The notes under the pieces are model-generated. The model made no database searches. It was not told the origin of the DNA and worked only from the letters and a program-made list of their open reading frames with translations. From Parcubacteria group bacterium (lineage in GTDB: Bacteria > Patescibacteriota > Minisyncoccia > Phycocordibacterales > CSBR16-119), in NCBI GenBank assembly GCA_943356745.1, contig CALRFT010000002.1:7124-71123 (forward strand): DNA of 64,000 nucleotides, read 5' to 3'. Shown here piece by piece: positions 3,980 through 18,671 of the stretch. Position 1 is the stretch's first letter. Each line of letters begins with the position of its first letter. The position numbers and the translations under genes were made by a program.

Positions 3980-5233
3980 ATGGCAAAAATTAATTCAGAC
4001 GTAGAAACTTTTGCACGCATCAAAGTTATCGGAATTGGTGGTTCAGGTGGAAATGCAATAAACCACATGATCACTCGTGGAGTACAAGGTGTTGAATTCA
4101 TTGCAATGAACACGGACGTGCAAGATCTTCACCACTCAAAAGCAGATAAGAAAATTCATCTTGGTAAAAATCTCACCAAGGGACTTGGTGCTGGAATGAA
4201 TCCAGAAATTGGACGAAAAGCAGCAGAAGAAACCCGATCAGAAATTCAAGATTTCGTAAAAGGATCAGATATGGTGTTTATCACAGCTGGAATGGGAGGA
4301 GGAACAGGAACAGGAGCTTCTCCAACTGTTGCGCGAGCTGCGAAAGAACAAGGGATTCTCACTGTTGCAGTTGTAACACGACCTTTCTTCTTTGAAGGTA
4401 ATCAACGACTTCGAATTGCGGATGAAGGTATCCGAGCACTTGAAAAAGAAGTTGATGCCATCATTACAATTCCAAACGACCGACTCCTTCAAATCACTGA
4501 AAAAAATACAAGCTTCAATGAAGCCTTTGAAATGGTAGATGAAATCTTGCGACAAGCAGTAGAAGGTATTTCTGATATCATTACAAACCCAGGAAAAATC
4601 AACGTGGACTTTGCAGATATCAAAGCAATCATGGCAGACGCAGGATCAGCACTCATGGGAATCGGATATGCAGCTGGAGAAGGCCGAGCAGAAAATGCAG
4701 CGCTTCAAGCAATCAATTCCCCACTTCTTGAAATCTCAATCAATGGAGCAAAAGGAGTTCTTTTCTCTGTTGCAGGAAGTGAAGATCTTGGAATCCAAGA
4801 AATTCAAGCGATTGCAAAAATCATTACTGAATCAATCGACAAAGACGCAAAAGTTATTTGGGGTAAAACTCAAGATGACAAACTCAAAAAAGGAGAAATC
4901 CGAGTTACTGTTATCGCAACAGGTTTTCCAAATAGCACACAAAGAAAATCTTTGTTTGGTGCTCAACAGCAACAACAAATGATGTCAGCAACGACTTCAC
5001 GACCAAAAGAAGAGACTCGAGAAGAAATGATTGTTGAAGAAGAGACACAAGAAAGAAAATCTCAAAGACGAGAAGAACCAAAAGAAATTCGAAACTCTAT
5101 CCCAAAGGTAGAAGATTTTGAAGAACTGAAAGTACCAGAAAAAGAACCTATTGAAATTGTCGACGGTGATGATTTTGAAGAGGATGACGAAGACTGGTCA
5201 GCGGTTCCAGCGTTTCTACGAAGAAAGAAATAA
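3980..5233 (+). CDS. ftsZ: Cell division GTPase FtsZ
   Basis: IGIGGSGGNAINHM start and the tubulin signature GGGTGTGASP. Acidic C-terminal tail. Confidence 0.95.
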   Translation: MAKINSDVETFARIKVIGIGGSGGNAINHMITRGVQGVEFIAMNTDVQDLHHSKADKKIHLGKNLTKGLGAGMNPEIGRKAAEETRSEIQDFVKGSDMVFITAGMGGGTGTGASPTVARAAKEQGILTVAVVTRPFFFEGNQRLRIADEGIRALEKEVDAIITIPNDRLLQITEKNTSFNEAFEMVDEILRQAVEGISDIITNPGKINVDFADIKAIMADAGSALMGIGYAAGEGRAENAALQAINSPLLEISINGAKGVLFSVAGSEDLGIQEIQAIAKIITESIDKDAKVIWGKTQDDKLKKGEIRVTVIATGFPNSTQRKSLFGAQQQQQMMSATTSRPKEETREEMIVEEETQERKSQRREEPKEIRNSIPKVEDFEELKVPEKEPIEIVDGDDFEEDDEDWSAVPAFLRRKK

Positions 5234-5299: not shown

Positions 5300-6370
5300 A
5301 TGCGAATAATAGAAGAAACAAAACTAGATTATCAGGATGTATTACTTCGTCCAAAACGAAGTACTCTCACATCTAGAAAAGATGTTGATCTTGAACGTGA
5401 GTTTACTTTTTACCATTCCCCAAAAACATGGAAAGGAATTCCAATCATGACAGCAAACATGGCAACCTGTGGAACTTTTGAAATGGCACAGGTTCTAGCT
5501 CCGTACAAAATGATTACAACATTTCACAAATACTACACTGTAGAACAATTTGAAGAGTTTTTCAAAAGTTTTAATAACCCAGATTATGTTGCCTATACAC
5601 TTGGAATTCGTGATGAAGATTTTGAAAAATTAAAAATAATGCAAGAAAAAGATTTATTGAAACATTTTTCTTTTATCTGTCTCGACGTTCCAAATGGATA
5701 TCTTCAAAAATTTTTAGACGCCATTAAAATGGTTCGTACAATCTGCAAGGAACATATTATCATTGCTGGAAATGTTGTTACAAATGAAATGGCAGAAGAA
5801 ATTATTCTCGCTGGAGCAGATATTGTGAAGGTTGGAATAGGTCCTGGTTCTGCTTGTACAACCCGAAGACAAACGGGTGTTGGATATCCACAACTTTCAG
5901 CTGTGATTGAGTGTGGTGACGCAGCACATGGAATGTCAAACTCTCAAGGGGTTGGACGAATCATTGCAGATGGAGGACAACAGTTCCCTTCTTGTGTAGC
6001 GAAAGCATTTTGTGGTGGTGCAGATTTCAATATGTTTGGATCAATGTTTTCTGGATTTGAAGAAAGTGGAGGAAATTTGATTGAAAAAGATGGAAAACAA
6101 TTCAAAGAATATTTTGGATCTTCTTCAAACAAAGCAATGGAAGAATTTTATGGGAAAAAAGATTCGCACCGAGCAAGTGAAGGGCGATACACACTCATTC
6201 CATTCAAAGGAAGTATTCATAATTTCATTCAAGACCTTCTTGGCTCACTTCGAAGTACTGGAACATATATCGGCGCACAATTTCTGAAAGAATTCCCCAA
6301 ACGAGCAACTTTTATTCGAGTAAACAGACAGCTCACAACCTATCTAGAAACTTTTGATACGGGAAAATAA
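5300..6370 (+). CDS. guaC: GMP reductase (IMPDH/GMPR family)
   Basis: N-terminus [23 protein letters not shown] matches the GuaC start. TIM-barrel IMPDH/GMPR motifs [19 protein letters not shown]. Confidence 0.7.
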
Positions 6371-7330: not shown

Positions 7331-7341
7331 CGCATACAAAG

Positions 7342-7366
7342 AACCCACCTTGAGTGGGTTTTTTGT
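7342..7366 (+). terminator. Rho-independent terminator after trxB
   Basis: aacccaccttgagtgggtttttt. Confidence 0.6.
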
Positions 7367-7425
7367 ATGTATTGACATAATTATATAATATTATATAATA
7401 TAAAAAATATTTAAAACTTAAGACG

Positions 7426-7683
7426 ATGAATAAAACAAACTCTCGAAAAGTAACTGAAACCAACTGGGAAAACCTCTTTATTGGGCTTATCGCACTTTTA
7501 TTATCTACAGCATCATTGTGTATCTTCATTGTTAATGCATTCAATCTAGAGTGGTCTTTTCCCGGGACTCTCGTAAGAGATATCCCCACCACCACAACTG
7601 CCCTTTTGGTATTCGCATTTACTCTTCTTCCTGCAGTTATTGCATTTCAAAACAGTAAAAGCGTTAGAACTGAGTGGTGCTAA
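7426..7683 (+). CDS. Hypothetical small membrane protein
   Basis: 85 aa with two hydrophobic helices. A terminator follows at 7708-7738. Confidence 0.3.
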   Translation: MNKTNSRKVTETNWENLFIGLIALLLSTASLCIFIVNAFNLEWSFPGTLVRDIPTTTTALLVFAFTLLPAVIAFQNSKSVRTEWC

Positions 7684-7796
7684 CATATTCAAAAGTATGA
7701 TCTTTCCCAAAACCCTTCTTCTGAAGGGTTTTTGTTTTATCTTTACATAAATACATATTTATGTCACAATAGCACCAAACCCTAAAATGTTATTTT

Positions 7797-8486
7797 ATGT
7801 CTCAAAAACAACTACGTTTCTTAAGTGATGGAACTCTTTGTTCCCTTTTTTCTCAAGGTTCTGTTAAAAGAAAACCTCGAATTGATCCATTTCTTTTCTG
7901 TGAATTTATTAAAAAAGACCAGGTGATAATTTTTAAAAAAGAAAAGATTCGCAAATTTATCATGGGAACCCTAGCGGTAAGCATAGTGTTCTCTGTTGGA
8001 CTTTTTGTGTTCAATTTTATCGATGAAGGAATTCTGGGAGTTTGTCTAACAATGTCTTTTATCGGAAGCCTCATGGTACATTACCTTTTGTTTCCCAAAG
8101 AAGACAGGAATAAAAAAACAAACAAAGAATACAGGGAAGCATTTTTCTCAATTCTTGAAAAAGAACAAACTCTTACTGAAGTCGGACTGAAAGAAATCTT
8201 TTACAGCCTCATTAAGCGAATCCAATTTTTAATGATTGGAGAGAAGAAATCTTCAACAGAAAATTTAAATCGAATCAAAAACATTATCTACTGCATCAAC
8301 CAGACACACGAAGAGAGAGGTATTGTATTAAAAGTTCCGTCAAATTTTAGTGGTATTTGTTCCCAGCTAAAACAACTGTTTCCCCAAGATGCCGACATTG
8401 ATCAATTCATTCAACAGCAATCTTTTATCATTCCCCCTGGAGTTACAGTAGACAAAACCATTCACATTGAAGAAACTCTTGCGTAA
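7797..8486 (+). CDS. Hypothetical membrane protein
   Basis: 229 aa with predicted TM helices near the N-terminus. A terminator follows at 8494-8528. Confidence 0.35.
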   Translation: MSQKQLRFLSDGTLCSLFSQGSVKRKPRIDPFLFCEFIKKDQVIIFKKEKIRKFIMGTLAVSIVFSVGLFVFNFIDEGILGVCLTMSFIGSLMVHYLLFPKEDRNKKTNKEYREAFFSILEKEQTLTEVGLKEIFYSLIKRIQFLMIGEKKSSTENLNRIKNIIYCINQTHEERGIVLKVPSNFSGICSQLKQLFPQDADIDQFIQQQSFIIPPGVTVDKTIHIEETLA

Positions 8487-8552
8487 AGCAAGGAACCGCG
8501 TCGCACAAGCGACGCGGTTTTTATTTTTCCCATTTATGAGTATAATCAAACC

Positions 8553-9179
8553 ATGCAAGGTTTCAGTGAACTCTTCTCAAATATTCTTTTCAGTCTTGGG
8601 CCAGTAACTCGAGAAGTTTTCATATTCTTTCTTGGTTATATCGAAGGACTTCCAATCATCGGCTCTCTTGTTCCTGGTGGCACCATGGCAATCCTCATCG
8701 GTAGTCTTTCAAAGGATGGATACATTGCCCCACTTCTCGCTATCAACCTCATTGCTCTTGGAAGTTTCCTCGGTGACCTCACAGGTTTTGTCTTTGGAAA
8801 ACAACTTCGAAAACTTGAATATGTAAAAAAGATGATGGAAAGTGAGAAGAACAAAAAACACTGGGATGTTTTTGACAGACACATTGCACTTGTAATCATC
8901 ATCGGAAAGGTTTTGCCGGTTGTGAGATCTACTCCTTCTCTTTTTGCAGGAATGCGAAAAATTCCTATTCATCGGTACGTAATCTACACACTCATCGGAT
9001 CATATCTTTGGGCTGTGATTGGAATCTATTCAGGAAGTGCTCTTGCAAATATTCTCGGGGACTATGCAGTACCAGTCATCATTCTCACAGTATTCGTACT
9101 TACATTTGGAAGTTTTGCTTACAATAAAATCAAAAAATATCAAAAACAAAAAAGACAAATAAAAGAAGCCGTCGAGTAA
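8553..9179 (+). CDS. DedA/SNARE-associated family membrane protein
   Basis: Multi-pass membrane protein with the DedA-like motif pattern (LGYIEGLPIIGSLVPGGTMAIL ... GKQL). Confidence 0.65.
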   Translation: MQGFSELFSNILFSLGPVTREVFIFFLGYIEGLPIIGSLVPGGTMAILIGSLSKDGYIAPLLAINLIALGSFLGDLTGFVFGKQLRKLEYVKKMMESEKNKKHWDVFDRHIALVIIIGKVLPVVRSTPSLFAGMRKIPIHRYVIYTLIGSYLWAVIGIYSGSALANILGDYAVPVIILTVFVLTFGSFAYNKIKKYQKQKRQIKEAVE

Positions 9180-9197
9180 ACTCGACGGCTTTTGTTT
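9166..9197. terminator. Bidirectional terminator hairpin between dedA (+) and the TrpF-like gene (-)
   Basis: aagccgtcgagtaaactcgacggctttt with A/T runs on both sides. Confidence 0.55.
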
Positions 9198-9970
9198 TAA
9201 ACTCTCACCCCTTGAAAAAGCGGAATAGACGCTTCCAAATACTTACGAACCTCGGAAAGATCCAAACCACCATGAGCAGCCTGCAACTTCCCTTCTGCAT
9301 CGGTAGAAATGTCTGGATACTGGTTTACAATATCAAGCAATTTCTGCTGAACATTTTCAGGAGATAAACCTCCTGCAACTCCGACTCCAAGATATGAAAT
9401 CGGACTAAACTCAGAAACAAGACTACCAATTTTTTGATGATCCAAATCGAGACCTCTTCCTCCCGACATATCAAGAAGAATGTGATCAATCGCTCTGTCG
9501 TATCCTAGAACAGCTTGGTAAATTTGTGTAAGGTCATTTCCTTTTTGAGAAAAAGCCTCATGTCCAACCTGAAGAACAAATTCAGCATTAGGATACTTTT
9601 CCTTATACCTCAGCAAATGTTCTTTGTCAGGCCAAGCCATATTGAGCTGAAACCCATGAAGGTTCTCACCTGCAAGTTGTGTGATTTGCATCAAATCATC
9701 AAAAAGGTTTGTAGGGTTATCACTTGAAAAATGAACCAAGTTGAGACAACCTTCATCATTCGTAAAAATTGATCCCAAATCTGTCATTTTTGGATATCGC
9801 AGAGGCCATTTGTTTTGAATTCCTTGCAAAGTCTTTGAACTCACAAGGACTCCGACCATTAAACGTCTTCCGACTATCGACGGATGAGTGTTTCGATTTT
9901 TGAGAACAATTTCAACTTGTCCTTGGTTCATAAAACCAGTAACTCCAATGTAGGGTGTTTTTTTATTCAT
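9197..9970 (-). CDS. Phosphoribosylanthranilate isomerase (TrpF)-like TIM-barrel protein
   Basis: Segments resemble the PRAI consensus: IGVTGF (KICGit), LHGFQ (qLHG.E), LLDMSGGRGLDLD (lLDa..GGtGk.fdW), VAGGLSPENV (lAGGlnpeNv). Confidence 0.45.
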   Translation of the reverse strand: MNKKTPYIGVTGFMNQGQVEIVLKNRNTHPSIVGRRLMVGVLVSSKTLQGIQNKWPLRYPKMTDLGSIFTNDEGCLNLVHFSSDNPTNLFDDLMQITQLAGENLHGFQLNMAWPDKEHLLRYKEKYPNAEFVLQVGHEAFSQKGNDLTQIYQAVLGYDRAIDHILLDMSGGRGLDLDHQKIGSLVSEFSPISYLGVGVAGGLSPENVQQKLLDIVNQYPDISTDAEGKLQAAHGGLDLSEVRKYLEASIPLFQGVRV

Positions 9971-10537: not shown

Positions 10538-10685
10538 GTTTAAATATTATCACAAAAACAGCTCCGAAAGGAGCTGTTTTGTATGCTTCTCGTGCTAGCA
10601 CGAAATGGTGACCCCTCTCCGAGGACTGCGTTTTACATACAATCGCTTTGCTCTTGTGTAAAACGGGAGCCTCCGGTACCCTCCG

Positions 10686-10733
10686 GGTCACAAATCAAAA
10701 ACACCTCTTGCGAGGTGTTTTTGATTTGTGACC
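10686..10733. terminator. Palindromic bidirectional terminator-like hairpin (copy 2, near-identical to 10012-10051)
   Basis: ggtcacaaatcaaaaacacctc-ttgc-gaggtgtttttgatttgtgacc. Perfect 22 bp stem. Confidence 0.5.
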
Positions 10734-10842
10734 CCAAGACCTGGATTTCAGAACTTGTTAAGGAAAGTTTAACAATAAAATCCAGCATAAGCGATCTCCA
10801 AGGTATCTTTGTGAATAGCCCCTATAATTTAGCTAGGCAAAG

Positions 10843-11493
10843 TTAATCTTTTTGCTTTCCGATCAGTTTTGCAAATGATCTTGCAATTGGTTCACCTAGA
10901 TGAACCACAAATAAACCGTCAATAGAAAGCTCCTCTTTTATGTCCCAAAAGAAACGCTCGATCCTTTTAGTTATTCTTCTCAGATATCTTGGGTCAAATT
11001 GTACAGGTCTATTAATCTGCATATGACCATTCTCATGGATGTTTAGTTTGGTATTAAAGTGAGCAACCTGGTTACCTCTGGCTCGAACAAGAGGATTGAT
11101 GCTGAGTTTTATGGCTTTCAATCTTTTTAGATATCTATTCTTAATCTTTACATCTTGTATATGATCTACCAGTGTAAAAAGAGAGGATGTTTGCTTATCT
11201 TCATCTAATATATTTCCCAAAATGATGATGGCATCACGAGAATAAACATCCCATAAAGAAATGACAAATGTGGTTGTAATCTTAGGATTGGAGTCTTTGA
11301 CGATAAAATCGTCCTTGTGTTTAGCTAGATACTGCAGTAACTCAGCATGATCAAGCAATCGACTTGTACTACTAAAAATATAATCTGTTATATTTCTTAG
11401 CTTTCTTTCTTCACTTATTGTTACCTTTTTCTTTTGGCTCATATTAATTAGTTGGAATAAGTTTATCAGTCCAAGACTTCTTATCTTCCTCAT
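10843..11493 (-). CDS. Uncharacterised protein co-operonic with the Gabija-like pair. Has an R-x5-H motif (possible HEPN-like RNase). The likely true start is the Met at 11442.
   Basis: The ATG at 11442 lies 1 nt after the upstream helicase stop (TAA-T-ATG). Motif VRARGNQVAHF is at 11059-11079. No recognisable family otherwise. Confidence 0.5.
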   Translation of the reverse strand: MRKIRSLGLINLFQLINMSQKKKVTISEERKLRNITDYIFSSTSRLLDHAELLQYLAKHKDDFIVKDSNPKITTTFVISLWDVYSRDAIIILGNILDEDKQTSSLFTLVDHIQDVKIKNRYLKRLKAIKLSINPLVRARGNQVAHFNTKLNIHENGHMQINRPVQFDPRYLRRITKRIERFFWDIKEELSIDGLFVVHLGEPIARSFAKLIGKQKD

Positions 11494-13168
11494 CAGGTAC
11501 TGCGATTACTAGAACTTTGCTCGGTCGAGAGATTGCTACATACACATTCCTCAACTCCTCATCCTGAGACACGCTACTAGTTTCAAGAAGAGTTTTATAG
11601 TTTTTAGAAACTTTCTTCTTCAGGAATAGTAGGACAGCTTCGAATGTTTCTCCTTTGACTTTATGAATGGTGCTTAATCTATAGTCACGCTGAATATTGT
11701 CCGTGTATTCTTGGGGAAATACACGAGAAAATTCGAGTTCTTTTGCCTCTGTGTTGTATGTGAAAGTGATAGGAATTTCAATTGATTTGAGCTGTTCACT
11801 GGCTGATTGAAGCCAAGCGCCTAGTTTAATATTTGTAAGCGGAAGAACTGCGAGTATAGCCTTGATTTCTTTTCTGAACTCAACAAAACCACGTTCATCA
11901 TGGAAATCATCCAAATCTTTTTCCGAGCAATAGTGTGCTTTCTTTAGAAATTTAAAGTAGCCCTTTTCTATATACTTTATTCCTCGATTGTAATCTTTGT
12001 TGTCTATGAGAAACTTGCCGATAGCAAAATCTCTTGCATAAGGACAACTATTTAACCAAGGCTTAATTTCTACGGTAAATGTGCCAGGAATAAAAAATCC
12101 TTTCGATCTAGCTAAGACTACAGTGGTTTTGGGTGTAATTTCTATGTCATTGGCTTTACATTTCTCTATAAAGTTCTTTACGATATCTTTTGTTTGTCCG
12201 TCAGTGTATGTGATAACCTCTGGCATACATTCAAAGTCCTTTACATCAACATTCGTTGCCAATATCTTGTTATCTCCCAATGAAGACAGGTTGTATACGG
12301 CATTACAAATTTTTTCTGAACTTCTCCAACTTTCATCAAGCACAATAGAGTTATCTTTCCAAAGTACTTGCTTCTCGATGAAAAGCTCTGGCTTTGCATT
12401 ATTCCATTCGAAGATTGCTTGATCAGGATCACCAACTAGCATTACATTTTGATCTGCATTTTCCGCTATTAATAATTCGATTATCTTCATTTGTATGTCG
12501 GTCGTATCCTGTGCCTCATCGACAATTAACCAAGGAAACTTCGAGGCAAGACTTTTTCTTACTGCGGGATATTTTTCAAGAATGACCATTGCGAAATAGT
12601 TTGCATCTGACTGAGTTGCGTAACCTTTCTTAGTAAACGCATCTTTCATCTGCTTCAATTTGAGATAGTTCTTATTTTCATCTCCGCCCTGGTTTAGTTT
12701 CGGCGGGAACGCTCCATGAAAATACTTTCTTTCTTTTCCATAAAGATCGCCATTTATTTCGTAACTTACTTTGTCAAAATAGTAAGGTGCGTCCTGGTCA
12801 TTCATACCCAGTCCCCATACACCATATGGTTCTCCAACCATAACGGGTCTTTGGTCGCAACCTAATACTAAATGCCCAAATGGAAGAAAGATGAATTTAT
12901 TTATAAAGCTATCAATTGTTCCGAGAAAGTGAGGGTAAGATACTTTTGTATTAAAATCTTCAGCACACTTCTTTTCGATTTCTTGCCAAGCAGTGTTAGT
13001 AAAAGAGATCGTGGCAATCCCTTGGTGTGGCAAAGTCCAATTTGAAATTAGCTTTGAAAGCTTTGCTGAAACACAGTATGTCTTTCCGCTCCCAGGACAG
13101 GCACGAACGACAAATTTACCCGTTCTATCGAGGACAACTTTTTGTTTGGTTGATAATTTCTCATACAT
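11444..13168 (-). CDS. gajB: UvrD/PcrA-like SF1 DNA helicase (Gabija GajB-like)
   Basis: Walker A ACPGSGKT, motif II LIVDEAQD, motif III VGDPDQAIFEW, motif V IHKVKGETFE, motif VI VYVAISRP. The start overlaps the stop of the upstream OLD-family gene. Confidence 0.8.
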   Translation of the reverse strand: MYEKLSTKQKVVLDRTGKFVVRACPGSGKTYCVSAKLSKLISNWTLPHQGIATISFTNTAWQEIEKKCAEDFNTKVSYPHFLGTIDSFINKFIFLPFGHLVLGCDQRPVMVGEPYGVWGLGMNDQDAPYYFDKVSYEINGDLYGKERKYFHGAFPPKLNQGGDENKNYLKLKQMKDAFTKKGYATQSDANYFAMVILEKYPAVRKSLASKFPWLIVDEAQDTTDIQMKIIELLIAENADQNVMLVGDPDQAIFEWNNAKPELFIEKQVLWKDNSIVLDESWRSSEKICNAVYNLSSLGDNKILATNVDVKDFECMPEVITYTDGQTKDIVKNFIEKCKANDIEITPKTTVVLARSKGFFIPGTFTVEIKPWLNSCPYARDFAIGKFLIDNKDYNRGIKYIEKGYFKFLKKAHYCSEKDLDDFHDERGFVEFRKEIKAILAVLPLTNIKLGAWLQSASEQLKSIEIPITFTYNTEAKELEFSRVFPQEYTDNIQRDYRLSTIHKVKGETFEAVLLFLKKKVSKNYKTLLETSSVSQDEELRNVYVAISRPSKVLVIAVPDEEDKKSWTDKLIPTN

Positions 13169-13171
13169 AGA

Positions 13172-14926
13172 TTATTCATTTTTTACAGCATACTTTATGG
13201 CATCCTGAATATAAGTTGGAATAACAAAATTTGTCAGAGCACCCGCATCTTCTTCAAGTCGAATTGATAACCGATGCGCCAACTCTGATTTGCCCTGCTG
13301 GTCTGCCACTTTTTTAGCAAAGTTTTTTGCATATGTCGGAATGTCAGCGTCCACAGTAATGGTAGTTTTTGGATGAAATTCTTTATATATCTCTAAAAGA
13401 ATTTGTCTGTTGAAATCACTTGCCAAGAATAGTTCGTATTCAAAAGTGACTGCACCAACGAAGACTTTCAGTAAGTTATTTTCCATTGCCTTTATCTTTG
13501 TTGCCCTTGGTGATCCATCGTCATCGTCCTTTGTTCTATCGTCATCAGTGATAATCGAACATCTATTTTTAAGACCTTTTTCTGGTTTTGCAGAATTGTA
13601 TAACTTTGCAAAATGTTCAAACGCAATTCCGTTTATATTTACAATTTCACAACCTGCTTTCTCCACATCGTAATCCGCACCCATTTTTCTACTAAAAACT
13701 GGAAGAAGTAGGGCTTCAGAAATACCCTCTACAAATATGACGCTATTTGCAAAGAATAACTGTGACTTCGTAACATCTAAGAACTTGTGCAGAAATTTTT
13801 TATTCGCTTCGTCTAGGTCTGAGTTTCTTAATGAAAGTGCAGATATTTCACCAGCTTGATGTTGCAAAACGTTGATTGAATTTAAATCTGCCTTAGCAGT
13901 AATTGTTGGAGAGTGTGAAGAAACAAAAATCTGAAAGTCCTTGTCTGTAGCAAGTTCATTTAGGTAGTTAAAAAATAGGTCTTGGAGCTGAGGATGGAGG
14001 TGAGCTTCTGGTTCTTCAATCAAGAGAGAAAAGTACGCTTCTGGTTCAATCTCTTTTTTCTGTTTTATGTCACCTAAAACTGTGGCTATATAAATCAAGT
14101 TATTATAACCAAGACCGTTTTGCCAAATGCTTAAATATTTCTGTTCATTCGATGGATCGAGTTTAAGTACTTCTTCTGAAAAGAATGGTAACTGAACATG
14201 TAAATTATTTAAGATATCACCAAATTCTAGTCCGCTAAAAGTAACCTCAATCTCTTGCTTCTTATCAAGAAAGGTTGTTCTGCCAAGATGCTCGTTTACT
14301 TTTTCCTTACCCTTAGTAATAAAATCTTTCCATTTGTCACCTTTAAGTACGGTTCTGACCTCTGTTGCTAAAGCTTGCTTCTCAGCTTCAGTATGAGATT
14401 GTGTATCACCGTACAAACGAGCCAATTTGCTATCTCTAAATGGTTTCAAAAATTGTTCTGCGTCACGTAGGGCATCGAGATGAACATAATTTATGAGCTG
14501 TAAAATTTCTGTAGAGATTTGCTGTCCCTCATTTGTTCCGCCCCAGACTTTGTATTTCAGTTTATTTTTCTCATCAAGGTAGTATTTTAAATGAAGCTGT
14601 AAATCTGCCTTATCGTTCTCATCTATAGCCAATAGCTCTCTGTATATAACAGGCTCGAGATCATCTTCTATTTCAAAATGCAGATCAAAAATCGTTTCAT
14701 TCTTTGCATCTTTAGGATCAGACTTGTTTATGTAAAAATCACATTCCTTTGAGAAGTAAATATCTCTCCTGATACTTCCGTATCCAAGGCAAAGTCGTAA
14801 GGCATCAATGATTGCAGTTTTACCTGCATTGTTTTCTCCAATAAGAATATTTAACCCCTTGTTAAAATCTAAGGAGAGTTCTTTGATTGATCTAAATCTA
14901 TTAATTTTTAGTTCTTTTATATACAT
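13172..14926 (-). CDS. gajA: OLD-family ABC ATPase plus TOPRIM nuclease (Gabija GajA-like / class 2 OLD)
   Basis: N-terminus IKELKINRFRSIKELSLDFNKGLNILIGENNAGKTAIIDAL (Walker A). LLIEEPEAHLHPQLQ (Walker B/H-loop typical of OLD/GajA). C-terminal TOPRIM motifs VIFVEGISE and IITDDD. Confidence 0.85.
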   Translation of the reverse strand: MYIKELKINRFRSIKELSLDFNKGLNILIGENNAGKTAIIDALRLCLGYGSIRRDIYFSKECDFYINKSDPKDAKNETIFDLHFEIEDDLEPVIYRELLAIDENDKADLQLHLKYYLDEKNKLKYKVWGGTNEGQQISTEILQLINYVHLDALRDAEQFLKPFRDSKLARLYGDTQSHTEAEKQALATEVRTVLKGDKWKDFITKGKEKVNEHLGRTTFLDKKQEIEVTFSGLEFGDILNNLHVQLPFFSEEVLKLDPSNEQKYLSIWQNGLGYNNLIYIATVLGDIKQKKEIEPEAYFSLLIEEPEAHLHPQLQDLFFNYLNELATDKDFQIFVSSHSPTITAKADLNSINVLQHQAGEISALSLRNSDLDEANKKFLHKFLDVTKSQLFFANSVIFVEGISEALLLPVFSRKMGADYDVEKAGCEIVNINGIAFEHFAKLYNSAKPEKGLKNRCSIITDDDRTKDDDDGSPRATKIKAMENNLLKVFVGAVTFEYELFLASDFNRQILLEIYKEFHPKTTITVDADIPTYAKNFAKKVADQQGKSELAHRLSIRLEEDAGALTNFVIPTYIQDAIKYAVKNE

Positions 14927-15233: not shown

Positions 15234-15659
15234 ATGAATACAAATATCTCTTCCTGGAGTACGGGAAGAAAGTTAGTCGTTTTTTTATTAGTTCCCATCT
15301 TCATCATCGTTGTCATAGGAATGGCAAACAGTCCAACTCCTGCTTCTGTTCCCAAGACGGCAGAAGAGATCGCATACCAGAAGAAACATGACTTTGCTTC
15401 ACTGGCGAAGATGAATGTCGAGATGACGCTCAAAGCTCCCTCTACAGCGAAGTTCAACACTTCACCAGTAGTGAAAGAAGAGAATGGTATCTACTCGATC
15501 AGCTCTTGGGTTGATAGTGAAAATAGCTACGGTGCAATGATCCGAAGTCAGTGGTCAGTAAAGGCTCATTACATCGGAGGGGACACTGAAGATGAGATCG
15601 GGACAGGTGCAAACTGGATCATCGATGAGTTCATTTTTGATGGGAAAAAGGTGAAATAA
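15234..15659 (+). CDS. Hypothetical small exported or membrane-anchored protein (island cargo)
   Basis: 141 aa with an N-terminal hydrophobic helix (LVVFLLVPIFIIVVIGMA). No recognisable domain. Confidence 0.5.
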   Translation: MNTNISSWSTGRKLVVFLLVPIFIIVVIGMANSPTPASVPKTAEEIAYQKKHDFASLAKMNVEMTLKAPSTAKFNTSPVVKEENGIYSISSWVDSENSYGAMIRSQWSVKAHYIGGDTEDEIGTGANWIIDEFIFDGKKVK

Positions 15660-15660
15660 G

Positions 15661-15900
15661 TGCAAGTACATTAACAGTGCTGAAAACAGTGCTAGAGGGT
15701 GAAAAACAGGCGAAAAAACACGCAAAACGGTAAGTAATGGATTTGGACAAAAACAGTGGAAAAAACAGTGAAAACGGCATCAAAAACACAGTCTCGAAAT
15801 GTGCATTAACAGCGACAAAAACAGCGACAGACTCTCTAGATTGATTTGACCAAAAACAGCGTGGAAACAGTGTGAGAAGCATCAATTTAGGGGTCTAAAA
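15661..15900. repeat. Iteron-like array: at least 10 copies of AAAACAG(T/C)G and close variants in ~240 bp
   Basis: aaaacagtgcta, aaaacaggcg, aaaacagtgg, aaaacagtgaaaacgg, aaaacacagtc, taacagcgac, aaaacagcgac, aaaacagcgtgg, aaacagtgtgag. Located directly upstream of the 232-aa ORF. Confidence 0.55.
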
Positions 15901-15916
15901 TGCTAGTATAAAGATT

Positions 15917-16615
15917 ATGGATTTAAGGACATCATTACAAGTTATTAACCGTGACAATATCTCAGATATTGAGAAGTTTTTAGCGTATGTACTTGATGCC
16001 TCTACTCAGGAACTTAAAGAAGCTCAGAAGAGAACTTTAGCGATCGTATACCACAGACTGTGGTGGTATCGAGATCAGGAGATCAAACGCTTTTTCCCAA
16101 AGACAGAGAAGTTTCAGGAGTATGTACCGTTTGTGTTTTCAGATCACAAGCTAACTGCTGAGCAGGATTTAAAAAACTTATTACTGAACAATAAAGATCG
16201 ATTTGGAAATCCAGACTACCCAGCTCTATTAAAGTTATTTAAATCGGATATCTCTGAGACCCTATCTTTCTTCACAAGCAAAGAAAACAGAACTGTAGAG
16301 GGTACACAGCTAATTCTTCGTTACAACAATTATGGAAAGTTTTGGCATGGAGACATAACAAAATCTTGCTATCCCATCAATTCTAAAAGTAAGCGGTTCA
16401 AGTTACTAAGGTATCTAATTGAAAACGAGGGCTTTCAGGACACTAAGGATATCTTGGCTTCTGTGGGTGGCAAAGATACACACTCTATTCGTACTGCAGT
16501 TAAAGAGATGAGATTGCTTATAGAGAAAAAACTTGATTTAGACGATGTTATTCTCTCTAATCCACCCGATGGATATGCTCTAAATCCTAAATATAAAGTT
16601 GTTTTTGAGAAGTAG
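15917..16615 (+). CDS. Hypothetical protein with a C-terminal winged-helix-like segment. Possible replication initiator or regulator of the island.
   Basis: 232 aa. C-terminal KRFKLLRYLIENEGFQDTKDILASVGG...IRTAVKEMR resembles a wHTH. Preceded by the iteron-like array. Confidence 0.4.
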   Translation: MDLRTSLQVINRDNISDIEKFLAYVLDASTQELKEAQKRTLAIVYHRLWWYRDQEIKRFFPKTEKFQEYVPFVFSDHKLTAEQDLKNLLLNNKDRFGNPDYPALLKLFKSDISETLSFFTSKENRTVEGTQLILRYNNYGKFWHGDITKSCYPINSKSKRFKLLRYLIENEGFQDTKDILASVGGKDTHSIRTAVKEMRLLIEKKLDLDDVILSNPPDGYALNPKYKVVFEK

Positions 16616-16730
16616 CTCTTTCGTAGTGTTGATATCTGTATTTGTTCCTTATTAAATAAACGTTTTCTGATGCAAAAAGCTACCCGAGCCTCATGGACGA
16701 ACTACGGGGTCAGGTTGGTATCGTTCGACT

Positions 16731-16916
16731 ATGGAAGTCGAGCAACTATTCTCAAAAGAAGAAATACAGAACATTTCCGATCTTGGGAATGTGCTACGGG
16801 AGATACGCTCCAGGCTTAAACGTGAGGGTGTCTCAATAGATGAAGCTCGCAAAAAGTTACGAGCCACACGAAAAAGAACTTATGCCTCAAAACAAAGACA
16901 AAAACAATCCGCATAA
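16731..16916 (+). CDS. Small basic protein upstream of and overlapping the recombinase gene. Possible DNA-binding protein or recombination directionality factor.
   Basis: 61 aa, K/R-rich C-terminus. Its position relative to the serine recombinase gene. Confidence 0.25.
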   Translation: MEVEQLFSKEEIQNISDLGNVLREIRSRLKREGVSIDEARKKLRATRKRTYASKQRQKQSA

Positions 16917-18552
16917 AAATGAGTATCTGATCTACTCACGTAAGAGTACGGACGATGCTATTAATCAAAAGAACTCCATTTCCTATCAAGTAGTGGAGGC
17001 ACTTAAATATGCAAAGCATGAGAGACTGCCGATTGCGAAAGTTGATATTGAGGGATTTTGTACAGAGGGCATTATCCGTGAAAGACATACGGCATTTAAA
17101 GAAGACGATAATCTTAATTTTAGTGATGATGGATATATAAAATATCGTATACAAAGACCCAAGTTTAAACGCCTAGTCGATGCTCTGGTTAAAGGAGAAT
17201 ACAAAGGCGTAATTTTTTTATGTTGGGATCGTGCCAGTCGCAACAAGAGTGATAACAGTGTTATTTCAAAGATGATAAATCTTGGAGTTGATGTACTATT
17301 TGTTCAGGCGACATACGAAAAAACTAGCTCTGGTGGTCTTCATATGAATATCGATGGTGTCTTCTCTGAGCATTACTCACTGGTGATTAGAGAGAAAGTA
17401 ACGAACACGAGAAAGAAAATGAGAGACGAGGGTATCTGCACTTACAAAGCCCCGATAGGATATTTAAATAATGGCGATCCTCGCCACAAGCCTTTTGACC
17501 CAGATCGTTCACCACTCGTAAAACAACTTTTTGAAAAATACGCTGAGGGAAATTGGACACTTGCTGATCTTGCACGTTGGGCTAATGAGAACGGTTTGAT
17601 CACTGTACCTGCTCGTCGAAAGAGAACGGAGCAGGAAATGTTGATGGACGATGAGGTTACAATAGATGCGGTCTCTCGTCCTATGACGTTTAATCATATC
17701 CATAAGATATTAACTAACCAGTTCTATATAGGTAAAGTATTAGGAAACGAAAACCAATGGGTGAAAAGTGTTAGTCATGCCCCGCTTGTTGATGAAGATT
17801 TATTTTATAGAGTTCAGGGATTGCTCCGTTCAAAGAAAGTTAGTGTCCACTACAAAACCAAGCCTTATTTCGCCTACAGAGGGCTTGTACGGTGTGGAGA
17901 GTGCCACAGAGTGTATTCGCCTTACATGCAGAAAGGTATAGCGTATTATGGCGCACGATGCATTCTTGGCTGTAAGAATAAGAACCGTAATATAAACGCT
18001 AATTTCATTGAGGAGAAAGTGGGATCAAAGCTATTTAACCTCAATTTCACTAAAGAAGAATTGGCTGATATCGATCGTCAGACCAGAGGTGAAGTTGCTA
18101 CTCTCGATGATAAGCGCAGGGGGCGTTTAAATGTTATTGATCAAGAGAAACGAAAGCTTCGAGATGATCTATCGTACTTACGCAACAATAAATTGTCTCT
18201 GCTTAAAAATCAGGTCTATAGCCATGAAGAATATCTTGAACAAGAGAGTGACATTGCTTCTAAACTTCAAAAGCTGAGGAATGAAGAAGAAGCATCGGAT
18301 GTTTCGATGCAAGAAGTCATTAGAGATGTGGTTCTACTTTCCGAACTCCTAGAAGACGCTTATTTGTATTACTCTTTGGCAAATCCAACAGAAAAGCAAC
18401 AAATAATAACGAAAGTCTTTTCCGAACTTACATTATTTGGTAAAACCCTTGATTACCAATGTAAAAACGGTTTTAAAGTCTTCGAGAAGAAGAAAAATAT
18501 CTTGTGTGACCCTACGGAGAATCGAACTCCGATTTCCAGGATGAAAACCTGA
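16840..18552 (+). CDS. Large serine recombinase (integrase)
   Basis: Catalytic motif LIYSRKSTDDAINQKNSISYQ (YxRxST...SxxxQ). RPKFKRLVDALVKGEYKGVIFLCWDRASRN (DRLSR-like). Recombinase domain, zinc ribbon CGECHRV...CILGC and a C-terminal coiled coil. The last ~15 codons are encoded by the tRNA-Glu 3' half. Confidence 0.85.
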   Translation: MKLAKSYEPHEKELMPQNKDKNNPHKNEYLIYSRKSTDDAINQKNSISYQVVEALKYAKHERLPIAKVDIEGFCTEGIIRERHTAFKEDDNLNFSDDGYIKYRIQRPKFKRLVDALVKGEYKGVIFLCWDRASRNKSDNSVISKMINLGVDVLFVQATYEKTSSGGLHMNIDGVFSEHYSLVIREKVTNTRKKMRDEGICTYKAPIGYLNNGDPRHKPFDPDRSPLVKQLFEKYAEGNWTLADLARWANENGLITVPARRKRTEQEMLMDDEVTIDAVSRPMTFNHIHKILTNQFYIGKVLGNENQWVKSVSHAPLVDEDLFYRVQGLLRSKKVSVHYKTKPYFAYRGLVRCGECHRVYSPYMQKGIAYYGARCILGCKNKNRNINANFIEEKVGSKLFNLNFTKEELADIDRQTRGEVATLDDKRRGRLNVIDQEKRKLRDDLSYLRNNKLSLLKNQVYSHEEYLEQESDIASKLQKLRNEEEASDVSMQEVIRDVVLLSELLEDAYLYYSLANPTEKQQIITKVFSELTLFGKTLDYQCKNGFKVFEKKKNILCDPTENRTPISRMKT

Positions 18553-18578
18553 TGTCCTAACCGTTAGACGATAGGGCC
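18507..18578 (-). tRNA. tRNA-Glu (anticodon TTC)
   Basis: Cloverleaf GGCCCTA-TC-GTCT-AACGGTT-AGGAC-A-TCAGG-TTTTCAT-CCTGG-AAAT-CGGAG-TTCGATT-CTCCG-TAGGGTC-A. Anticodon loop TTTTCAT. T-loop GTTCGATTC. Confidence 0.8.
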
Positions 18579-18624
18579 AATATAACTTGTGACTTTCCAG
18601 AAATTTTGTTATTTTCAGGTTTTT

Positions 18625-18671
18625 GAAAACCTGATGTCCGCTTATCATCTTTCTGGTTAGACGATAGGGCC
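18625..18671 (-). pseudogene. Partial tandem copy of the tRNA-Glu 5' half (acceptor 5' strand to anticodon stem) with an altered D-loop
   Basis: gaaaacctgatgtcc...ggttagacgatagggcc matches 18543-18578 but carries a 15-nt replacement in the D-loop region. No T-arm or 3' acceptor strand. Confidence 0.5.

Follow-up and report, generated by a model that had tools for sequence, protein, structure and literature searches.

What purpose is served by a dense row of direct repeats in front of a regulator-like gene in a small mobile island? The question is raised by a 64,000-nucleotide stretch of DNA from a Parcubacteria group bacterium (contig CALRFT010000002.1, positions 7,124 to 71,123 of the forward strand), which is referred to as a whole as the window and which contains an island with a large serine recombinase gene at its right-hand end. 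Upstream of that gene, the 257-bp spacer between the stop codon (15659) of an open reading frame (ORF) of 141 amino acids (aa), coding for a membrane or secreted protein, and the ATG (15917) of a 232-aa ORF is packed with same-strand repeats, exactly where a first-pass annotation of the sequence had placed them. The best available reading of this array is that it forms a cooperative, multi-site binding platform for the adjacent 232-aa protein, a predicted winged-helix protein, and thereby tunes the expression of the recombinase operon. The reading is put forward tentatively, at somewhat less than an even chance, and is weighed below together with its rivals.

The array comprises 13 units of the same strand between positions 15670 and 15880, as located by a regular expression anchored on An-C-(A/G)-(G/C), with the anchoring C at 15675, 15687, 15707, 15719, 15728, 15754, 15766, 15775, 15787, 15810, 15822, 15857 and 15868. 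Each unit covers 11-12 nt and consists of an A4-6 tract followed by a word of 5-7 nt, most commonly CAG(T/C)G; thus the earlier count of at least ten copies holds, and the motif length of 8-9 nt given with it was too short. The enrichment of the motif relative to the rest of the window and its strand specificity, both of which had been proposed as checks, are evident. Six of the eight matches to AAACAGYG on the two strands of the window fall within 15684-15872, all of them on the plus strand, and the two matches outside the array correspond to the chance level. Likewise, ten of 81 matches to AAAACRS lie within 15683-15859, again exclusively on the plus strand. The densest 250-bp stretch contains ten copies of AAAAC on one strand, compared to a background of 0.9 per 250 bp per strand, and when the window was simulated 300 times with a third-order Markov model, the maximum averaged 5.4 (sd 0.74) and never exceeded 8. 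The repeat array is thus genuine, strand-specific and far above chance.

Tandem Repeats Finder reports periods of 11-12 nt for the array, and the autocorrelation of the sequence is best at a lag of 12. As for the helical phasing proposed earlier as a check, the A-tracts recur at about 11.5 bp and not at the 10.5 bp of the helical repeat. The units are organised in five plus-strand blocks of two to four, in which neighbouring units are 11-12 nt apart. Block a (15670-15693) has two units, ATTAACAGTGCT and GAAAACAGTGCT, placed 12 nt apart; block b (15702-15732) has three, AAAAACAGGCG, AAAAAACACGC and AAAACGGTA; block c (15749-15792), which includes a predicted curvature peak at 15765, has four, AAAAACAGTGG, AAAAAACAGTG, AAAACGGCA and AAAAACACAGT; block d (15805-15828) has two, ATTAACAGCGAC and AAAAACAGCGAC; and the promoter-proximal block e (15852-15880) has two, AAAAACAGCGTGG and AAACAGTGTG, followed by a conserved tail, AGAAGC. 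Likeness is also found across blocks, whereby block a resembles block d and the lead-in of block c resembles that of block e. The words of adjacent pairs are identical at 3.62 of 6 positions, versus 2.19 between pairs (permutation p = 5e-5), in a test that pools four of five arrays, namely those of the window and of the related elements L007, L008 and L012.

These related metagenomic elements share a backbone of LOOT (a small RNA), one or more variable cargo genes, the winged-helix gene, one or more small ORFs, a large serine recombinase gene and a tRNA gene; they include close and more distant members, and restriction-modification or Abi defence genes are often found at their left side. Arrays occur in four of them, each directly upstream of the winged-helix gene and in the same orientation. 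In L007 and L008 the winged-helix protein is 60% and 39% identical, respectively, to that of the window, while the protein of L012 (array at 5395-5645) shares only the C-terminal domain, at 40% identity, and that of L066 (array at 685-950) is 62% identical to the one of L012. The array is absent from L001/L002, L003-L005/L010, L006, L011, L060, L061, L062, L063, L064/L065 and L067, and such array-less relatives mostly have just about 30-100 bp before the winged-helix gene.

Comparison of the arrays reveals both conservation and rearrangement. Orthologous pairs can be aligned between the window and L007, in which the counterpart of the block c pair is CAGTGAAAAGAACAGTG; in block d both members differ alike, with CAGCGAC twice in the window and CAGCGCG twice in L007. 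In L007, moreover, a LOOT-type promoter appears to have been fused directly to the array, with loss of the LOOT RNA and the cargo gene and retention of the array. With L066 the window shares exact stretches of 26 nt in block b (15702-15727, equivalent to L066 790-815) and of 20 nt in block e (15861-15880, equivalent to L066 879-898), the longest exact matches between the two elements, and a near-identical version of the block a pair, AATAACAGTGCT AAAAACAGTGCT, is present at L066 838-861. The order of the blocks is a-b-c-d-e in the window, versus b-a-e plus other blocks in L066. The remainder of the two elements is much less alike: their winged-helix domains are about 40% identical, their N-terminal domains differ and their LOOT copies have no exact 12-mer in common. 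Since blocks b and e are identical though the cargo proteins are only 41% identical, the blocks must be either constrained or recently exchanged, and from such sequence comparisons we read the array as an assembly of modular blocks of 24-32 bp that are strongly constrained or exchanged between elements. L012 and L008 contain the additional words CTCG, CCGA, GCAGGG and CAGAG, mostly as adjacent pairs of an A5 word and an A6-7 word, and slippage in the A-tracts is a plausible origin of new pairs.

Several other explanations for the repeats were considered and rejected. A coding repeat is ruled out by spacings of 20, 26, 23, 35 and 11 nt, which are not multiples of three, and by a 1-nt indel between the window and L066 inside the conserved block b; an 84-aa ORF on the minus strand is accounted for by the low A content of this strand. 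A structured RNA or known RNA family is ruled out by a fold z-score of -0.81 and by the lack of any Rfam match at E <= 1. A motif used throughout the host, such as a regulon site or an uptake sequence, is incompatible with the chance-level occurrence of AAACAGYG outside the array. A site of the serine recombinase is likewise ruled out, in that the recombinase gene of L001 shares exact stretches of up to 47 nt with that of the window, yet L001 has no array. Single AAAAACAGTG units in the array-less L004 are explained by the T-tract of the LOOT promoter and by a run of codons in the small ORF.

The candidate binder of the array is the product of the gene that follows it (15917-16615, plus strand). 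In the structural model of the 232-aa protein, which has a mean pLDDT of 90 and is based on an alignment of 60 sequences, an N-terminal four-helix domain (residues ~1-125) precedes a C-terminal domain of the OmpR/PhoB winged-helix type (~132-231). The predicted fold of the latter consists of an N-terminal beta-sheet (strands 132-137, 141-144 and 151-153), three helices (159-169, 176-183 and 188-206), the third being the recognition helix, and a C-terminal beta-hairpin wing (strands 212-215 and 219-222). About 40 of the top 42 Foldseek matches in the PDB are DNA-binding domains of the OmpR/PhoB type, with probabilities of about 1.0 and target TM scores of 0.55-0.73; they include those of ToxR, CadC, PhoP, SaeR, ArlR, GlnR, YycF, AdeR, KdpE and OmpR. 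The winged-helix C-terminus that had been suspected from the sequence is thereby well supported. Sequence profiles point weakly in the same direction: the Trans_reg_C family is matched by eight of 60 family members at E <= 0.01 (best 3e-5), and the best PDB profile matches of the 232-aa protein are the OmpR-family DNA-binding domains of HP1043 and DrrD (E = 0.02-0.08). A receiver domain with a phospho-acceptor Asp, the hallmark of a two-component response regulator, is not present, its place at the N-terminus being taken by the four-helix bundle. An exhaustive profile search recovered 394 cluster representatives that share the C-terminal ~105 residues and have variable N-termini, and close full-length homologues proved very rare, with four in a word search of 5.8 billion sequences. 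No family of PHROG, NCBIfam or PADLOC is matched by the protein, nor does its match to any curated family reach the threshold, and tblastn searches of phage and plasmid collections found no match.

The predicted core promoter of the 232-aa gene (15890-15916, plus strand) lies between the array and the coding sequence. It is composed of a conserved GGGGTCTAAAATG followed by an extended -10 element, TGcTAGTAT (15901-15909; TG at 15901-15902 and TAGTAT at 15904-15909), which leaves 7 nt before the ATG; a consensus promoter scan picked TAAAAT at 15896-15901. The promoter block GGGTCTAAAATG(C/G)TAGTAT is kept between the window and L007, and in L001 and L004 a TGnTAnTAT-type element stands 5-7 nt before the ATG of the homologous gene. 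The proximity of the -10 element to the start codon, with the same layout in L001, L004 and L007, indicates that the mRNA of the 232-aa gene is probably leaderless. Relative to this promoter the array spans about -45 to -245. It is thus placed upstream of the core promoter and not over it, which fits activation, or an architectural or cooperative mode of control, more readily than a mere blocking of the promoter. Nothing resembling a terminator was detected from the winged-helix gene to the recombinase gene, and the two may accordingly be co-transcribed. The winged-helix gene of L060 and that of L062 are followed by a GC-rich hairpin with a T-run which looks, by eye, like an intrinsic terminator.

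A palindrome, TGTCGACA, often within TTTGTCGACAAA, is found in many relatives where the winged-helix gene or a neighbouring small ORF starts, or shortly upstream of that start (L006 ~9955, L008 ~398, L011 ~1350, L012 ~5663, L062 ~2632, L063 ~4775, L066 ~962 and L067 ~3158), and is probably a second operator of a different kind. In the window element, TTCGAC...GTCGAG surrounds the start of a 61-aa ORF (16725-16743) downstream of the winged-helix gene.

How might the array and the protein act together? In the platform proposed here, each block would offer two to four head-to-tail half-sites at 11-12 bp, a half-site being an A4-6 tract plus a word of the C(A/G)(G/C) type. In the manner of PhoB bound to pho boxes, the protein would use its recognition helix to read the word in the major groove and would place its wing in the narrow minor groove of the A-tract, while the N-terminal four-helix domain may hold two or more DNA-binding domains together. 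The five blocks, distributed over about 200 bp of intrinsically curved DNA, could thus support the cooperative assembly of a nucleoprotein complex that extends from about -45 to -245. Such a complex would control how strongly the winged-helix gene and, by way of that gene, the 61-aa ORF and the large serine recombinase are expressed, and would thereby determine how readily the island excises from, or integrates into, the tRNA-Glu gene.

Several lines of evidence favour this platform. The adjacent protein has a fold of the OmpR/PhoB type, a class that binds tandem direct repeats whose half-sites are 10-11 bp apart; the 11-12 nt spacing of the units is near this value and equal to the 11-12 bp of the plasmid sites stbS and tubC, which are considered below. 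The position and orientation of the array next to the winged-helix gene are constant in five elements, the C-terminal winged helix is the sole protein module common to all array-bearing elements, and L007 kept its array beside the winged-helix gene after the apparent loss of LOOT and cargo. AAACAGYG occurs nowhere else in the island and hence the target is local, as expected for autoregulation.

A number of observations weigh against the platform. At least eight related elements keep the winged-helix protein, and the recombinase, without an array, which must therefore be dispensable for the basic role of the protein. The words of L008 and part of those of L012 (CTCG, CCGA and GCAGGG) are unlike CAGYG. 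Over the five arrays, the co-variation of recognition helix and repeat words is partly contradictory: the helix is HSIRTAVKEMR in the window, RSVMSEIGKIR in L066 and RSVMNEIGKIK in L012, beside identical or very similar blocks, and conversely the recognition helices of L007 and L001 are almost the same, with an array in L007 only. The match of the 232-aa protein to Trans_reg_C (PF00486; residues 154-222, 20.1 bits, E = 6.7e-4) is below the gathering score of 26.2, the 12-bp spacing exceeds the usual 10-11 bp, and the identity within pairs could derive from A-tract slippage and not from selection.

The same observations can be accommodated, in part, by explanations in which the neighbouring protein has no role. 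The array may be a cis site for a factor that is not encoded by the neighbouring gene but by the host, a helper phage or a plasmid, serving the maintenance or spread of the island through packaging, transfer, replication or segregation. This would account for blocks that are identical over 26 and 20 nt next to proteins that are about 40% identical and differ in their recognition helices, for the shuffled block order, as expected of modular sites, and for the optional nature of the array among relatives; moreover, in plasmid R388 the stbS array upstream of the gene of its binding protein, StbA, acts in segregation without a plasmid-encoded NTPase. No helper candidate emerged, however. In 2.9 million viral contigs, two scans with conserved blocks gave three chance matches in coding sequence, and a scan with the pair pattern gave 46 matches, nearly all of them two-copy repeats in lysine-rich coding sequence. 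The lack of tblastn matches for the 232-aa protein in phage and plasmid collections, the lack of motif enrichment elsewhere in the 64-kb host window and the constant tie between the array and the winged-helix promoter further render such a factor unlikely, though it deserves some weight. Alternatively, the repeats might act without any dedicated protein, as phased A-tracts maintained by slippage that bend the DNA upstream of an extended -10 promoter without a good -35 element and raise its activity, in the manner of UP elements, via the alpha-subunit of RNA polymerase or other upstream contacts. The bending itself is probably real. Among the predicted curvature peaks of the window, the one in the array ranks third (58.5 degrees at 15765), the mean over 240 bp places the array in the top 0.3% of the window, and the arrays of L012 and L008 are well above the means of their loci; these values come from a wedge model with the parameters of Bolshoy et al. 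(1991), and their absolute size is rough, which tempers the argument. An A-tract period of about 11.5 bp and the within-pair identity, which fits an origin by slippage, are also in keeping with curved DNA, and the core promoter of array-less relatives appears functional, which gives the array the look of an add-on. Curvature does not explain, however, why non-A words are conserved, both in the exact 26-nt and 20-nt blocks and as CAGTG, CAGCG and CTCG shared across elements, and the period is off the 10.5-bp helical repeat, such that the bends would add only locally. An exclusively structural role is thus rather unlikely.

The first-pass annotation had left a choice between an operator array for the 232-aa protein and the iterons of a plasmid or phage replication origin, with replication of the island after excision as a corollary. 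The operator half of that proposal survives as the platform described above, on the grounds of the tandem-repeat-binding class of the protein and the same placement in five elements; the iteron half fares poorly. The repeats are direct, numerous, on one strand and beside a winged-helix gene, as they would be if the 232-aa protein were an initiator that lets the excised circle replicate, and a distant relative, L061, has a primase-helicase gene with Toprim_2 and AAA_25 domains (7332-9242) between its winged-helix and recombinase genes, which implies that elements of this type can carry replication functions; L061 is possibly a replicative version of the island. The units, however, are 11-12 bp long with words that differ between blocks, in contrast to near-identical iterons of 17-22 bp. 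The array has 60% A+T, below the ~63% of the surrounding window (G+C 0.35-0.40), and no AT-rich unwinding element is near; the eight most AT-rich 40-mers of the 10.5-18.7 kb region all fall outside the array, within ORFs. A perfect DnaA box is likewise lacking within 5 kb, the sole perfect TTWTNCACA between 10.5 and 18.7 kb being at 10655. Instead of the double winged helix of Rep proteins, the 232-aa protein combines a helical bundle with a winged helix of the OmpR type, and no Rep family, such as Rep_3, is matched in Pfam, PHROGs or NCBIfam. The window element codes for no helicase, primase or loader and indeed has no replication gene, and the array is missing from many relatives, at least eight, that keep the protein. 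Both the iterons and the replication of the excised island are accordingly quite improbable. Still less probable is a neutral, slippage-prone minisatellite, either debris at the junction of the cargo slot or a sequence acting only as RNA, for example as an A-rich 3' untranslated region of the cargo gene. Within-pair identity, the A5/A6 length variation and the presence or absence of the array among relatives match slippage, and in L007 the array directly follows a LOOT-type promoter and is probably transcribed there; such a view conflicts with a single position and orientation in five diverged elements and with exact block conservation, and the lack of significant RNA structure, of an Rfam match and of a reading frame compatible with the spacings and the indel in block b speaks against a role as RNA or coding sequence. 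A bolder combination, in which the array and the OmpR-like protein form a minimal, motor-less maintenance module of small serine-recombinase islands in bacteria of the candidate phyla radiation (CPR), is a long shot. In that case the array would be a centromere- or origin-like platform similar to StbA/stbS, with slippage-renewed blocks of 24-32 bp that are exchanged between diverged elements, alongside LOOT.

The surroundings of the array identify the island as a large serine recombinase element, with catalytic Resolvase and Recombinase domains encoded by a gene that abuts the attachment site. From left to right it consists of a HEPN/AbiU2-like ORF, gajB, gajA, LOOT, the 141-aa gene, the array, the 232-aa gene, the 61-aa ORF, the recombinase gene and tRNA-Glu, and it is probably a defence island of about 8 kb. 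The HEPN/AbiU2-like ORF (10843-11493, minus strand), a weak match, lies left of the Gabija pair, which was detected by PADLOC (GajB, 11444-13168, and GajA, 13172-14926, both on the minus strand; E = 6e-179 and 4e-157, respectively) and whose gajA gene is directly left of LOOT. The recombinase ORF (16840-18552, plus strand; Pfam Resolvase PF00239 and Recombinase PF07508, PHROG integrase 2.8e-54) probably starts in fact near 16882, and its last 47 nt are inside tRNA-Glu(UUC) (18506-18578, minus strand), which is the integration target and the right end of the island; the same arrangement is found in L003. The conserved 61-aa ORF (16731-16916, plus strand), with homologues at the same position in L001 and L004, matches no family in Pfam, PHROGs or NCBIfam and is possibly a recombination directionality or regulatory factor. 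Within the recombinase gene, 16913-17924 shares many exact stretches of 17-47 nt with L001 6390-7401, while the cargo gene of L001 is different and its array missing; the modules of the island are therefore exchanged independently.

As for the boundaries, the 5' half of tRNA-Glu has a second, interrupted copy at 18624-18639 plus 18656-18671. A search for a displaced 3' fragment of the tRNA, which would mark the left end, returned just the 8-nt TGTGACCC at 10727-10734, not significant alone; the match, a copy of an 8-mer from the tRNA 3' end, is part of a perfect 23-bp hairpin (10685-10734) that lies between a NUDIX gene and the HEPN-like ORF, and the region is tentatively taken as the left end of the island. 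In L006 and L061, group I introns are present at the right edge (13071-13329 and 11171-11403, respectively, both on the minus strand), the latter overlapping the 3' end of the recombinase gene, and the integration target of these two elements may be an intron-containing tRNA gene.

The 141-aa cargo gene (15234-15659, plus strand) codes for a protein with an N-terminal membrane anchor or signal and ends 11 nt before the array. Its product is 41% identical to the 165-aa cargo protein of L066 (185-682), and an array follows both genes. The family has a conserved C-terminal domain (...APSTAKFN...SENSYGAM...FDGKK) and matches PHROG families of unknown function (best 6e-14). Elsewhere the cargo slot is occupied by bPH_2 and Imm_superinfect/SHOCT proteins, which hints at roles of the cargo genes in superinfection exclusion.

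At the head of the cargo slot stands LOOT (RF03000; 15041-15169, plus strand), which is full length and scores 84.1 bits versus a gathering score of 46.4. It is also present in seven related elements (L001 4698-4817, L004 936-1055, L006 8325-8444, L012 4273-4393, L061 3576-3700 on the minus strand, L063 4334-4455 and L066 1-119). Where the upstream sequence was read (window, L001, L004, L012 and L063), LOOT is preceded, at about 25 nt, by an extended -10 promoter of its own, and in the window, L001, L004, L006, L012, L063 and L066 it precedes the variable cargo gene, usually for a small membrane protein, by about 60-70 nt; a cis-acting leader would also fit. All array-bearing elements found have either LOOT or a promoter of the LOOT type, with the exception of L008, for which the contig is too short to judge. 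In L061, three 12-nt tandem repeats, GAGAGTTCCGGG, are found at about 4207-4243 in an 840-bp intergenic region adjoining LOOT.

A direct-repeat array beside the gene of its binding protein is a well-known design, shared by operators, iterons and plasmid centromeres, and the array as such therefore introduces no new principle. The novelty resides, on the one hand, in the uncatalogued winged-helix family, with its 394 cluster representatives and no curated family above threshold, which appears to supply the standard regulator for the small serine-recombinase defence islands of ultra-small (CPR-like) bacteria and, on the other hand, in the block-modular, pairwise architecture of the array and its link to the LOOT RNA. 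Nothing was found in the literature on the function of LOOT or on serine-recombinase islands of Patescibacteria, and, as far as searches show, this orphan small RNA family is here placed for the first time in a defined mobile element, a context from which its function will be easier to approach. The array provides a concrete putative DNA target for one member of the winged-helix family. If binding proves true, it would offer a handle on the excision control of such islands, the present one of which carries a Gabija defence system.

Among known systems, the closest in protein fold are the OmpR/PhoB regulators. Upstream of the promoters that they control, members of this family bind direct repeats arranged head to tail at intervals of roughly one helical turn, and every repeat combines a GC-containing word with a segment rich in A/T. 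WalR/YycF, SaeR, AdeR, GlnR and PhoB on its pho boxes thus share with the present system the DNA-binding fold and the placement of head-to-tail repeats. The 232-aa protein differs from them in having a four-helix bundle instead of a receiver domain, a sequence below the Pfam threshold and a place in a mobile island instead of a two-component system, and the array differs in extending 13 half-sites over about 200 bp, versus 2-6 half-sites, and in its spacing of 12 bp versus 10-11 bp. The iteron origins of RepA, pi and RepE plasmids and of lambda O are comparable in their same-orientation direct repeats beside a winged-helix protein gene, which they often autoregulate, yet they differ in unit length, homogeneity and protein fold; moreover, the present array has no AT-rich unwinding element or DnaA box, and relatives can dispense with it. 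With upstream curved DNA and UP elements the array has in common a high predicted curvature and phased A-tracts that precede a promoter whose -35 element is weak; it is set apart from them by its conserved non-A words, its extension to about -245 and its period of 11.5 bp.

The likeness to plasmid centromeres is closer in layout. As in parC/ParR, tubC/TubR and stbS/StbA, an array of direct repeats with a period of 11-12 bp, here 13 where at least seven define the class, lies upstream of the gene of the candidate binder and adjoins its promoter; no gene for a partner motor NTPase (ParM, ParA or TubZ) is present between 10.8 and 18.6 kb. TubR, of the type III partition systems of plasmids and prophages, is a winged-helix protein. 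Its centromere, tubC, includes about seven 12-bp direct repeats upstream of tubR (bioRxiv 10.1101/2022.04.29.490116), arranged in blocks, and the TubR complex covers or adjoins the promoter, autoregulates it and bends the DNA into a higher-order structure (PMC6009700). A blocked array of direct repeats of about 12 bp upstream of a gene for a helix-turn-helix-type protein is thus common to both, while the island, unlike TubR/tubC, is chromosomally integrated, has no gene for a TubZ GTPase or other motor and codes for a winged helix of the OmpR and not the TubR type. In R388, stbS consists of two sets of five 9-bp direct repeats with 2-bp spacers, i.e., an 11-bp cycle, upstream of stbA, and one StbA dimer is bound per two repeats, StbA being both an autorepressor and a segregation protein that needs no plasmid-encoded NTPase (bioRxiv 10.1101/2022.04.29.490116). 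StbA binds via an N-terminal, PadR-related helix-turn-helix domain, in contrast to the C-terminal OmpR-type winged helix of the 232-aa protein, and the stbS repeats are near-identical to one consensus, whereas the words of the array differ between blocks. In its layout of 11-bp-cycle repeats upstream of the gene of the binding protein, the StbA/stbS system is nonetheless strikingly similar to the array described here.

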